This document shows, one piece after another, positions 8,202 through 38,100 of a stretch of 64,000 bases of DNA. A model generated the notes under the pieces. It did no database searches and had not been told where the DNA came from. It saw only the letters and a list, made by a program, of their open reading frames with translations. Each line of letters begins with the position of its first letter. Within the stretch, counting starts at the first letter, position 1. The DNA comes from Escherichia coli. Lineage in GTDB: Bacteria; Pseudomonadota; Gammaproteobacteria; Enterobacterales; Enterobacteriaceae. Location: NCBI RefSeq assembly GCF_002854065.1, contig NZ_CP024147.1; one strand, given 5' to 3'. Made by a program: the position numbers and the translations under genes.

Positions 8202-9461
8202 TCAGACAACTTCCTCACCGTAACGCATAGTGCTGGTACGGTTGCGCCCATCTTTCTTCGAGCGATACAGACACGTATCGGCTTCGACCATCAATTTATT
8301 AAAGTCATCGGTCAGCGTTCGGTACGATGCGCGACCACTACCGACGCCAATACTTACCGTGAGATAAAGCGTTTTTTGTTGCCAGGTGAATGGTTGCAGT
8401 TCAACGCCTTTACGGATTTTTTCCGCCATTAGCAGACCATCGACAGGATTCACCGACGGCACTGCAACAGCAAATTCTTCGCCGCCCATTCGCGCCACCA
8501 GCCCCTTATCACCGACAATCTTCTGGATATGCCGGGCAAACACGCTTAACACTTTATCGCCACATTCATGTCCATAGTTATCGTTAATACTTTTGAAATA
8601 GTCGATATCAAGCAGCATGACAGTCAGATGTTGTGTCTGTTTCAGCGATGGACTTTTCAGCGCCTCATAAAGACCGGACCGTGAGTAAACCTGAGTCAGA
8701 AAATCAAAGTCGGCTCGCAGCGCAACTTGCTTCATTAGCGAATTGATCGCTGCCACGCTAAAAGAAACCATAATTGGGCATATCGCCATCGTGGCAATAC
8801 CGAGACGTGCGGAGAACATTTCCGGAATGGAGAACGGCGAACCGACCGAGATATCAATCACCGAATTAGCCACCAGTACGATTTCCACCGCACCGGTGAC
8901 AAAGGTCAACAGACATGTTACCTGCGGCGTATAGCGCACTGCACACCAGATTAATGCAGGCAGCGGGAACGCCAGACTCCCCGCTCCACCAATGACTACC
9001 GAGGCAATAACCGACACAATAAGCGCGATGGCGGGCATCATCTGTTCTGCTTTAAAGCGCGGCAGCACTCCAGGAATAGCCAACGTCAGCATACAAGGCA
9101 CGATCAACACGCCCGTTGAGAATTGCTCACTGAACCAGTCCGCAAGCAAAGGCCAGAAATCCAGACTATCAATACTGACCGAACCAATCGCCCCGACAAT
9201 AGCGCATAATAATGCGGCAATCAGACAGTAATTAAATAGCCGTAAGGCACTTACTGGCTCATACTTATTTTTCCCCAGACGCTTATCCCGCACGACCAGT
9301 AAGGCGACGGTAACAATAAACATCATATTGGAGAAATTGATAGCCAGTGAAACCAGTCCCCATTCGGTGGTTATGGCATCATAAACCAGCATCGCCACAT
9401 AACTGATCGCGTAGTAATGCAGTCGATTAAGCCAGACATAGCGGGCAAACACCCCCGCCAT
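8202..9461 (-). CDS. dgcF: membrane-anchored diguanylate cyclase (GGDEF domain)
   Basis: 419-aa ORF; multi-helix hydrophobic N-terminal region followed by a GGDEF domain with RMGGEEF active-site motif; the true start is uncertain (see finding). Confidence 0.8.
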   Translation of the reverse strand: MAGVFARYVWLNRLHYYAISYVAMLVYDAITTEWGLVSLAINFSNMMFIVTVALLVVRDKRLGKNKYEPVSALRLFNYCLIAALLCAIVGAIGSVSIDSLDFWPLLADWFSEQFSTGVLIVPCMLTLAIPGVLPRFKAEQMMPAIALIVSVIASVVIGGAGSLAFPLPALIWCAVRYTPQVTCLLTFVTGAVEIVLVANSVIDISVGSPFSIPEMFSARLGIATMAICPIMVSFSVAAINSLMKQVALRADFDFLTQVYSRSGLYEALKSPSLKQTQHLTVMLLDIDYFKSINDNYGHECGDKVLSVFARHIQKIVGDKGLVARMGGEEFAVAVPSVNPVDGLLMAEKIRKGVELQPFTWQQKTLYLTVSIGVGSGRASYRTLTDDFNKLMVEADTCLYRSKKDGRNRTSTMRYGEEVV

Positions 9462-9757
9462 TACGCCATTCAGGGCCAGAAAAGAGAAAGTTCGTGAACC
9501 AGCCGTAACTCTGCACCAATAAAATAGAACAGCGTGGTTAGCGCAAAAATAGCGATGCTATTACGTAGCAGATGACCTTCCTGGAACAAACGGAAAGTTG
9601 AAATGGGGTGTACATGCATTAATTATCTGTCCATACAATTGCGGGTGGCAATTATCTCAACGTAATAAGTAAATTCTCATAAAGGATAGCATGTTCGCTG
9701 ACAGCGGCGGCAAATAAAGGTACCCTGGGAATGCTATTTTATCGTTTTCCGCAATTC

Positions 9758-16701: not shown

Positions 16702-16814
16702 TGGTGGTTGTTATCCTGTGTATCTGGGTTATCAGCGAAAAGTATAAGGGGTAAACAAGGATAAAGTGTCACTCTTTAGCTAACCTTGCATCGCATTGAC
16801 CAAAACTTGAACCG

Positions 16815-16910
16815 ATTTAGCAAAACGTGGCATCGGTCAATTCATTCATTTGACTTATACTTGCCTGGGCAATATTATCATCTGCAACTAATTACTTGCC
16901 AGGGCAACTA
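16815..16910 (+). promoter_or_regulatory. marO: marRAB promoter/operator: marbox-like site (ATTTAGCAAAACGTGGCATC, ~16815-16834), -35 TTGACT (16850-16855), -10 TATTAT (16873-16878, 17-bp spacing), and two TTGCC-N-GGCAA-type palindromes (MarR operator sites) overlapping the -35/-10 and the RBS
   Basis: Hexamers and palindromes TTGCCTGGGCAA / TTGCCAGGGCAA read directly from the sequence; assignment by established mar locus architecture. Confidence 0.75.
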
Positions 16911-17782: not shown

Positions 17783-18001
17783 ATGAAACCGCTTTTATCC
17801 GCAATAGCAGCTGCGCTTATTCTCTTTTCCGCGCAGGGCATTGCGGAACAAACCCAGCAACCGCTCGTTACTTCCTGTGGCGATGTGGTGGTTGTTCCCC
17901 CATCGCAGGAACAACCACCGTTCGATTTAAATCACATGGGTACAGGCAGTGACAAATCGGATGCGCTGGGCGTGCCCTATTATAACCAACAAGCCATGTA
18001 G
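17783..18001 (+). CDS. marB: small periplasmic protein MarB
   Basis: 72-aa ORF with signal peptide, immediately after marA. Confidence 0.9.
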   Translation: MKPLLSAIAAALILFSAQGIAEQTQQPLVTSCGDVVVVPPSQEQPPFDLNHMGTGSDKSDALGVPYYNQQAM

Positions 18002-19125: not shown

Positions 19126-20337
19126 ATGAACTTATCCCTACGACGCTCTACCAGCGCCCTTCTTGCCTCGTCGTTGTTATTAACCATCGGACGCGGCGCT
19201 ACGCTGCCGTTTATGACCATTTACTTGAGTCGCCAGTACAGCCTGAGTGTCGATCTAATCGGTTATGCGATGACAATTGCGCTCACTATTGGCGTCGTTT
19301 TTAGCCTCGGTTTTGGTATCCTGGCGGATAAGTTCGACAAGAAACGCTATATGTTACTGGCAATTACCGCCTTCGCCAGCGGTTTTATTGCCATTCCTTT
19401 AGTGAATAACGTAGTGAATAACGTAGTGAATAACGTGACGCTGGTGGTGCTATTTTTTGCCCTTATTAACTGCGCCTATTCCGTTTTTGCTACCGTGCTG
19501 AAAGCCTGGTTTGCCGACAATCTTTCGTCCACCAGCAAAACGAAAATCTTCTCAATCAACTACACCATGCTCAACATTGGCTGGACCATCGGTCCGCCGC
19601 TCGGCACGCTGTTGGTGATGCAGAGCATCAATCTGCCCTTCTGGCTGGCAGCTATCTGTTCCGCGTTTCCCATGCTTTTCATTCAAATTTGGGTAAAGCG
19701 CAGCGAGAAAATCATCGCCACGGAAACAGGCAGTGTCTGGTCGCCGAAAGTTTTATTACAAGATAAAGCACTGTTGTGGTTTACCTGCTCTGGCTTTCTA
19801 GCTTCTTTTGTTAGCGGCGCATTTGCTTCATGCATTTCACAATATGTGATGGTGATTGCTGATGGGGATTTTGCCGAAAAGGTGGTCGCGGTTGTTCTTC
19901 CGGTGAATGCTGCCATGGTGGTTACGTTGCAATATTCCGTGGGCCGCCGACTTAACCCGGCTAACATCCGCGCGCTGATGACAGCAGGCACCCTCTGTTT
20001 CGTCATCGGTCTGGTCGGTTTTATTTTTTCCGGCAACAGCCTGCTATTGTGGGGTATGTCAGCTGCGGTATTTACTGTCGGTGAAATCATTTATGCGCCG
20101 GGCGAGTATATGTTGATTGACCATATTGCGCCGCCAGGAATGAAAGCCAGCTATTTTTCTGCCCAGTCTTTAGGCTGGCTTGGTGCCGCGATTAACCCAT
20201 TAGTGAGCGGCGTAGTGCTAACCAGCCTGCCGCCTTCCTCGCTGTTTATCATCTTAGCGTTGGTGATCATTGCTGCGTGGGTGCTGATGTTAAAAGGGAT
20301 TCGTGCAAAACCGTGGGGGCAGCCCGCGCTTTGTTGA
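19126..20337 (+). CDS. ydeE: MFS transporter
   Basis: 403-aa polytopic ORF; contains an in-frame 12-bp x3 tandem repeat (see repeat feature). Confidence 0.85.
   Translation: MNLSLRRSTSALLASSLLLTIGRGATLPFMTIYLSRQYSLSVDLIGYAMTIALTIGVVFSLGFGILADKFDKKRYMLLAITAFASGFIAIPLVNNVVNNVVNNVTLVVLFFALINCAYSVFATVLKAWFADNLSSTSKTKIFSINYTMLNIGWTIGPPLGTLLVMQSINLPFWLAAICSAFPMLFIQIWVKRSEKIIATETGSVWSPKVLLQDKALLWFTCSGFLASFVSGAFASCISQYVMVIADGDFAEKVVAVVLPVNAAMVVTLQYSVGRRLNPANIRALMTAGTLCFVIGLVGFIFSGNSLLLWGMSAAVFTVGEIIYAPGEYMLIDHIAPPGMKASYFSAQSLGWLGAAINPLVSGVVLTSLPPSSLFIILALVIIAAWVLMLKGIRAKPWGQPALC
19402..19437 (+). repeat. in-frame tandem repeat, 3 copies of a 12-bp unit (GTGAATAACGTA; third copy ends GTG) encoding VNNV x3 within ydeE
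   Basis: Direct reading of 19402-19437; repeat is in the ydeE reading frame. Confidence 0.9.
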
Positions 20338-20784: not shown

Positions 20785-21668
20785 CGGTTAATCACATTTT
20801 GTTCGTCAATAAACATGCAGCGATTTCTTCCGGTTTGCTTACCCTCATACATTGCCCGGTCTGCTCTTCCAATGACCACATCCAGAGGCTCTTCAGGAAA
20901 TGCGCGACTGACACCTGCTGTCACGGTAATGTTGATATGCCCTTCGGAATGTGTGATGGCATGGTTATCGACTAACTGGCAAATTCTGACACCTGCACGA
21001 CATGCTTCTTCATCATTAGCCGCTTTAACAATAATGATAAATTCTTCCCCCCCGTAGCGATAAACCGTTTCGTAATCACGCGTCCAACTGGCTAAGTAAG
21101 TTGCCAGGGTGCGTAATACTACATCGCCGATTAAATGCCCGTAGGTATCATTAACCAATTTAAATCGGTCAATATCCAACAACATTAAATAAAGATTCAG
21201 AGGCTCAGCGTTGCGTAACTGATGATCAAAGGATTCATCAAGAACCCGGCGCCCCGGCAATCCCGTCAAAACATCCATATTGCTACGGATCGTCAGTAAA
21301 TAAATTTTGTAATCGGTTAATGCCGCAGTAAAAGAAAGTAACCCTTCCTGAAAAGCGGCGAAATGCGCGTCCTGCCAGTGATTTTCAACAATAGTCAGCA
21401 TTAATTCCCGACCACAGTTATGCATATGTTGATGGGCAGAATCCATTAGCCGAACGTAAGGTAATTCATCGTTATCGAGTGGCCCCAGATGATCAATCCA
21501 CCGACCAAACTGGCACAGTCCATAAGAATGGTTATCCGTTATTTCTGGCTTACTGGCATCTCTCGCGACCACGCTGTGAAACATACTCACCAGCCACTGG
21601 TAGTGGGCATCGATAGCCTTATTGAGATTTAACAAGATGGCATCAATTTCCGTTGTCTTCTTGATCAT
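20778..21668 (-). CDS. dgcZ: zinc-sensing diguanylate cyclase (CZB + GGDEF)
   Basis: ~296 aa from the ATG at 21668; GGEEF motif (RYGGEEF). Confidence 0.9.
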   Translation of the reverse strand: MIKKTTEIDAILLNLNKAIDAHYQWLVSMFHSVVARDASKPEITDNHSYGLCQFGRWIDHLGPLDNDELPYVRLMDSAHQHMHNCGRELMLTIVENHWQDAHFAAFQEGLLSFTAALTDYKIYLLTIRSNMDVLTGLPGRRVLDESFDHQLRNAEPLNLYLMLLDIDRFKLVNDTYGHLIGDVVLRTLATYLASWTRDYETVYRYGGEEFIIIVKAANDEEACRAGVRICQLVDNHAITHSEGHINITVTAGVSRAFPEEPLDVVIGRADRAMYEGKQTGRNRCMFIDEQNVINRV

Positions 21669-37689: not shown

Positions 37690-38100
37690 ATGGCTCAGGC
37701 TGCCATTTTTAAAGAAATATTCGATCAAGTGCGTAAAGATTTAAACTGTGAATTATTTTATTCTGAGCTAAAACGTCACAATGTCTCACTTTATATTTAC
37801 TATTTAGCCACAGATAATATTCACATTGTGTTAGAAAACGACAACATAGTGTTAGTAAAAGGACTCAAAAAGGTTGTAAATGTTAAATTCTCCAGAAACA
37901 AACATCTTATAGAGACCTCCTATAATAAGTTGAAATCAAAAGAAATCACATTTCAACAATACAGGGATAATCTTGCTAAAGCAGGAGTTTTCCGATGGGT
38001 TACAAATATCCAGGAACACCAAAGATATTACTATGCCTTTGATAACTCATTACTATTTACTGAAAGCATCCAGAAAACTACACAGATCTTACCACGCTAA
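37690..38100 (+). CDS. ydfO: uncharacterized prophage protein (DUF1398, YdfO-like)
   Basis: 136-aa ORF. Confidence 0.7.

Follow-up and report, generated by a model that had tools for sequence, protein, structure and literature searches.

One-, two- and three-copy alleles of an in-frame 12-bp tandem repeat in the ydeE gene of Escherichia coli

The ydeE locus and its product

In this study, we describe a coding tandem repeat in a stretch of Escherichia coli DNA of 64,000 nucleotides (contig NZ_CP024147.1; hereafter the window), which carries genes in the order marRAB - eamA - ydeE - mgtS - dgcZ. The ORFs of the window are colinear with the annotated loci L001, L002 and L032, and the RefSeq annotation of the matching genomes also gives the repeat-bearing gene as ydeE. 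Features of the locus are listed in Table 1.

The translated product matches the NCBIfam equivalog NF007472 (YdeE) with 786 bits, above the cut-off of 582. Residues 1-403 align to profile positions 1-395, and at 403 aa the product is 8 residues longer than the usual 395-aa form. The ORF is ydeE, encoding a dipeptide exporter of the major facilitator superfamily (MFS, DHA1-type). The consensus of MFS motif A is G-x-L-a-D-r/k-x-G-r/k-r/k, located in the cytoplasmic TM2-TM3 loop; the translation of the window gene carries this motif at G64-I-L-A-D-K-F-D-K-K-R74, where it aligns to GTLADKLGKK of NorA. YdeE has been described as a DHA-type MFS dipeptide exporter with a very low basal level of translation, repressed by the small RNA GcvB (PMC9299463). 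The gene is also regulated by CpxR, and deletion of ydeE lowered survival in acid and raised survival under protamine (PMC9600279).

Elsewhere in the window, the gene for a sensor-domain diguanylate cyclase (8202-9619, minus strand) has a 1-nt deletion near position 9474 relative to strain GPEC1446, leaving an ORF of 419 aa and not 472 aa. In strain 100416 the annotation likewise gives this gene as 'frameshifted', and its frameshift in both the window and 100416 marks it as a lineage-specific pseudogene.

Table 1. Features of the ydeE gene and its repeat array (positions in the window)
Feature	Position	Strand	Basis or remark
ydeE CDS, 403 codons and stop	19126..20337	+	ORF list, NCBIfam NF007472, RefSeq homologous loci, AlphaFold/Foldseek
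Codons 72-92, conserved TM3 portion leading into the repeat (...GFIAIPL)	19339..19401	+	AlphaFold helix 72-96, hydropathy
Perfect tandem array, unit TAGTGAATAACG, 3.1 copies	19400..19436	+	Tandem Repeats Finder and direct reading
Repeat unit 1	19400..19411	+	Gapped in 2-copy relatives (multiple alignment)
Repeat unit 2	19412..19423	+	Direct reading and Tandem Repeats Finder
Repeat unit 3	19424..19435	+	Followed by TGAC, as after the single unit in ordinary E. coli
Codons 105-132, TM4 after the repeat (TLVVLFFALINCAYSVF...)	19438..19521	+	AlphaFold helix 100-132, hydropathy, NorA TM4 alignment

Sequence of the repeat array

Direct reading of window positions 19402-19437 gave GTGAATAACGTA GTGAATAACGTA GTGAATAACGTG, which lies in frame within ydeE and encodes residues 93-104, VNNVVNNVVNNV, that is, VNNV three times. 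An in-frame 12-bp repeat with three copies of VNNV had been proposed in a preliminary description of this DNA, and was confirmed here by reading of the sequence, by Tandem Repeats Finder and by translation of the ORF. Tandem Repeats Finder placed the array at 19400-19436, with a period of 12, 3.1 copies, 100% matches, no indels and a score of 74, the unit in the phase of the program being TAGTGAATAACG. In its maximal phase the array is a perfect periodic run of 37 nt; the differing last base of the third copy that had been pointed out earlier is due to the codon phase chosen for that first reading.

Across the 64-kb window, the ydeE array had the top tandem-repeat score and was the sole perfect array. 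By our own arithmetic, about 6e-11 runs of 25 consecutive period-12 matches would be expected by chance per 64 kb of random sequence, and the array is therefore non-random. Its units are identical at the DNA level, including the synonymous positions, which fits a recent origin. In an alignment of the window, CUWW06, 100416, two SRA assemblies and a 1-copy outgroup, units 1 and 2 are both gapped in the 1-copy genomes; no one physical unit can be singled out as the 'extra' one.

A role of the repeat as a regulatory or structural DNA element was also considered and rejected. No promoter-like site was found within the repeat and the terminator-like sites lie outside the array; no DNA hairpin was found in the repeat, and its single-stranded fold energy was weaker than that of shuffled controls.

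Position of the repeat in the YdeE fold

Hydropathy analysis gave two hydrophobic segments, at about residues 76-92 and 96-118 (1-copy numbering), which are split by two asparagines alone. Clusters of lysine and arginine are located in the flanking loops (KFDKKR at 69-74; K118, K130 and K132). The TM3-TM4 turn was oriented using the canonical topology of MFS proteins, and under the positive-inside rule the turn with the repeat would face the periplasm.

An AlphaFold model built from 84 diverse homologues (pLDDT 92.1, pTM 0.89) has 12 long helices with short breaks, among them helices spanning residues 72-96 and 100-132, which are interrupted at 97-99. In this model the inserted residues extend both TM3 and TM4 by about one helical turn, and the hairpin turn falls within the middle copy. 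A first AlphaFold run, made with a shallow alignment of 25 orthologues (pLDDT 45), was discarded. The best Foldseek matches to the model were MdfA, NorA, LmrP and SotB (probability 1.00), which have the same 12-helix fold as YdeE (TM 0.7-0.8) but share just 14-20% identity with it. By phmmer, the repeat segment aligned to the TM3-TM4 turn of NorA, so that the YdeE repeat maps to the equivalent short turn before the motif-B helix. The loop location suggested in the preliminary description is borne out by the hydropathy and positive-inside pattern, the NorA alignment and the AlphaFold model (pLDDT 92), and mapping of the repeat onto the predicted structure, which had been proposed as a check, puts the break between the two helices inside the repeat run.

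In 22 of 22 orthologues outside the repeat-bearing clade, drawn from Escherichia, Citrobacter and relatives, the TM3-TM4 turn is four residues long (V-[NHD]-[NS]-V) and free of indels, and P91 and L92 just before it are invariant among YdeE orthologues. The orthologues have a very tight four-residue turn where the window allele has twelve residues. Across a wider set of 83 homologues (23-100% identity), the length of the turn is unchanged in 78 and is increased by 2 to 8 residues in the other five; these five indicate that the fold can accommodate a longer hairpin. On these alignments, the length of the turn is strongly conserved in the YdeE orthologue group.

Copy number across genomes and proteins

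A set of 5,426 complete E. coli genomes was surveyed. A full ydeE was matched in 5,414 of them, and nearly all of the matches listed span 1188 nt, corresponding to the 395-aa form. With short repeat queries, approximately 5,340 complete genomes were matched, two of them with more than one copy. The 136-nt 3-copy query gave a full ungapped match in CUWW06 only, the other matches listed spanning 112 nt, that is, one copy, and a synthetic 2-copy query matched at 100% solely in strain 100416. For a synthetic 4-copy query, no complete E. coli genome gave a match spanning 148 nt. The tally for complete genomes is one with three copies (CUWW06), one with two (100416) and essentially all others with one.

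We also looked up exact sequences among about 15 billion collected proteins. On the window's own background, the 1-copy protein was present on 619 contigs and the intact 2-copy protein (P0016, 399 aa) on 39 contigs in 70 index blocks; exact look-ups of 3-, 4-, 5- and 6-copy proteins found none in this collection. Neither were there 2- or 3-copy derivatives of the three YdeE backgrounds that are most common, with at least 1000 contigs each, nor any exact match to the IS1-truncated CUWW06 product, to A84V variants or to 3-copy forms starting at M30 or L34. The long or high-scoring YdeE-like proteins P0031-P0040 and P0145 contain no extra VNNV units, their surplus length being made up of other duplications or frameshifted tails. 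Among JGI metagenome contigs, none had two or more copies, in a scan whose control turned up just 27 one-copy contigs, too few to make it informative.

Assemblers sometimes miscount tandem repeats, and the extra copies could in principle be an artefact of sequencing or assembly. We regard this as barely credible, since the whole array of 37 nt is below any modern read length, the 3-copy form was seen again in the independent complete genome CUWW06, and the 2-copy form is present both in one complete genome and across dozens of SRA assemblies produced independently.

The preliminary description had taken the repeat for a length-polymorphic site, to be abandoned if all alleles had exactly three copies. 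Alleles with one, two and three whole units were found, and this part of the proposal stands; a species-wide VNTR is not what was seen, as the multi-copy genomes found all belong to one narrow clade.

History of the array within one clade

Multi-copy loci were recovered from CUWW06, 100416 and the SRA assemblies L003, L004 and L033-L036. Over 4-20 kb, they all match the window at 99.7-99.98% identity, whereas one-copy loci are 2-6% divergent. Between the 3-copy (window, CUWW06) and 2-copy (100416, L003, L004, L033-L036) alleles the gaps are exactly 12 nt, with a flank divergence of 0.03-0.3%.

To examine the nesting of the alleles, 7.2 kb were aligned with the 1-copy strain GPEC1446 as the root, and three sites in this alignment were informative. 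The 2-copy assembly SRR28779497 keeps the outgroup base at window positions 17840 and 21893 and is therefore basal in the clade, while a derived G at 21249 is common to the window and CUWW06 alone. The 3-copy genomes are nested inside the 2-copy clade. Monophyly of the two 3-copy genomes is given by one shared SNP in 7.2 kb, and recombination, or two independent events from two to three copies, might also have produced them. The most parsimonious history looks like one duplication from one to two copies at the base of the clade, followed by one gain from two to three in the ancestor that the window strain shares with CUWW06, and each of these steps probably had a single origin. Copy number follows the SNP phylogeny, which argues for rare inherited steps and not for frequent switching.

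These data also bear on whether the array could be a contingency locus, switching rapidly so that copy number tunes or varies an exposed loop of the transporter. Such a locus might well look like a perfect array in a surface-exposed periplasmic turn with three allele sizes among very close relatives; yet a unit of 12 bp is four codons, so that no on/off switching of the frame would result, copy number tracks the SNP tree and is fixed at two in dozens of isolates, and no allele with more than three copies was found in the complete E. coli genomes or the protein collection. A periplasmic turn of a few residues in an inner-membrane protein would, moreover, not be an evident target for selection by phages or the immune system. 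We consider a contingency function very improbable. Assignment to the phase-variable class was rejected, the array being located inside the CDS, with no frame shift, no promoter-like site and few allele sizes.

The basal assembly SRR28779497 (L004) additionally has a 5-nt insertion (GATGT) in marB, at window-equivalent position 17881, by which the called product is cut to 50 aa.

Probable origin and expansion of the repeat

The ydeE array very probably arose recently, within one clade, by in-frame tandem expansion of a 12-bp segment. The ancestral and near-universal state in E. coli would be the single unit, ...CCTT TAGTGAATAACG TGAC..., encoding the four-residue turn V-N-N-V (TM3-TM4), predicted to be periplasmic. 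In the ancestor of the narrow clade, this unit would have been duplicated once, giving two copies and a protein of 399 aa. At the junction of this founding duplication, microhomology is limited to 1 nt (T), and to label the step from one to two copies as 'slippage' is an assumption on our part. Two adjacent identical 12-nt units would then form a substrate for slipped-strand mispairing, by which whole units may be gained or lost at replication, a mechanism that we infer from established knowledge. One slippage step from two to three copies would have given rise to the 403-aa allele of the window strain and CUWW06, subsequently inherited clonally. Since the length of the unit is a multiple of three, the reading frame is kept through changes in copy number, and the TM3-TM4 hairpin gains 4 or 8 residues. 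For an exporter that is weakly expressed and dispensable, such a change was probably neutral or mildly deleterious.

Inactivation of ydeE in the clade

A search at the DNA level, without the requirement for an intact protein, recovered three members of the clade (the window, CUWW06 and 100416), and in two of the three ydeE has been independently inactivated. In CUWW06 the gene is split by IS1 (L001 4982-5748) with a 9-bp target duplication at window positions 20098-20106, and both halves are annotated by RefSeq as pseudogene fragments. In 100416 the 2-copy allele carries a GGA to TGA nonsense mutation at codon 22 (G22*; window-equivalent 19189; L002 9838; also L033-L036). This 2-copy G22* allele was found on at least 17 SRA contigs, where it is called as a product of 370 aa starting at M30 (P0302), and its presence in both 100416 and the SRA contigs points to a subclade with an inactivated ydeE. 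The two independent knockouts hint that the allele may not be selectively indifferent.

Expansion of the loop could itself impair or abolish YdeE in a setting where loss of the exporter is favoured or tolerated, the repeat then being one of several hits on a decaying or counter-selected gene. Besides the two further knockouts on repeat-bearing alleles (IS1 in CUWW06; G22* in 100416 and on at least 17 SRA contigs), the invariant turn length among YdeE orthologues speaks for this, as do the survival of the ydeE deletion mutant beyond that of the wild type under protamine (PMC9600279), the very low basal translation of YdeE (PMC9299463) and the presence of another frameshifted gene, that of the diguanylate cyclase, in the same lineage. 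We nevertheless consider it unlikely, given that at least 39 contigs have an intact 2-copy ORF and that the window has an intact 3-copy ORF, that five distant homologues naturally have 2-8 extra residues at the turn, that AlphaFold, although an unreliable judge of the effects of insertions, still predicts a confident MFS fold, and that the unbiased sample amounts to three genomes only.

A stronger form of this idea, in which stepwise lengthening of the hairpin progressively attenuates dipeptide export by YdeE and, together with the knockouts, records selection against the exporter in the niche of the lineage, seems more doubtful still. If it were true, cationic-peptide stress, where ydeE deletion mutants survive better, would be an example of such a niche, and the repeat would act as a reversible 'rheostat' of transporter activity.

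Comparison with known repeat systems

The favoured explanation, a young clade-restricted expansion, places the ydeE array close to the short coding VNTRs used in bacterial MLVA typing, with which it shares identical head-to-tail units, whole-unit alleles among close relatives and a preserved frame. As in a VNTR, at least two identical units are arranged head to tail, and alleles differ by whole units among near-identical genomes. Compared with VNTRs of the MLVA type, however, ydeE has only 1-3 copies, and more than 99.9% of E. coli carry the single unit and thus no repeat; its variation is also confined to one clade and tracks the phylogeny.

Repeat-mediated slippage is the presumed mechanism also for the phase-variable simple-sequence repeats of Neisseria, Haemophilus and Helicobacter. 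Unlike those loci, the 12-bp unit of ydeE comes without frameshift switching, an effect on promoter spacing or evidence of high-frequency variation.

Other in-frame internal tandem duplications are present in rare YdeE proteins, namely P0022 (+2 aa), P0034 (+11), P0033 (+22), P0032 (+43) and P0031 (about +200). They belong to the same class of spontaneous mutation as the VNNV duplication, but are singletons or near-singletons located inside helices or whole domains, none of which involves the VNNV turn; some of these duplications may have arisen in assembly. The VNNV duplication, in contrast, is found in dozens of isolates and was followed by a second expansion.

A literature search for ydeE together with tandem repeat, VNTR or MLVA found nothing relevant. 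The locus appears to be undescribed, while its kind, a coding-repeat polymorphism generated by duplication and slippage, is well known; the ydeE repeat is an ordinary young repeat polymorphism, and the finding leaves the understanding of YdeE and of repeat biology unchanged. It does provide a worked example of an in-frame coding repeat that was born from non-repetitive sequence and then expanded, with the 1-, 2- and 3-copy intermediates all preserved in relatives. By PCR product size, the 12-bp steps could offer a simple means of recognising one clade of E. coli and the subclade within it. The alleles also form a natural series of insertions in an MFS exporter, adding 4 and 8 residues at its TM3-TM4 turn, and could be used to probe the tolerance of the hairpin.

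Other tandem repeats in the window

Two further tandem repeats were noted in the window. An imperfect 21-bp repeat at 16775-16826, in the marC-marR intergenic region, has 2.5 copies with 71% matches and presumably corresponds to the direct repeats already known from the mar operator (marO). Another 21-bp repeat, at 37823-37864 (2.0 copies, 85% matches), is located inside a stretch of short ORFs at about 36.7-43.4 kb that has the look of a prophage remnant.
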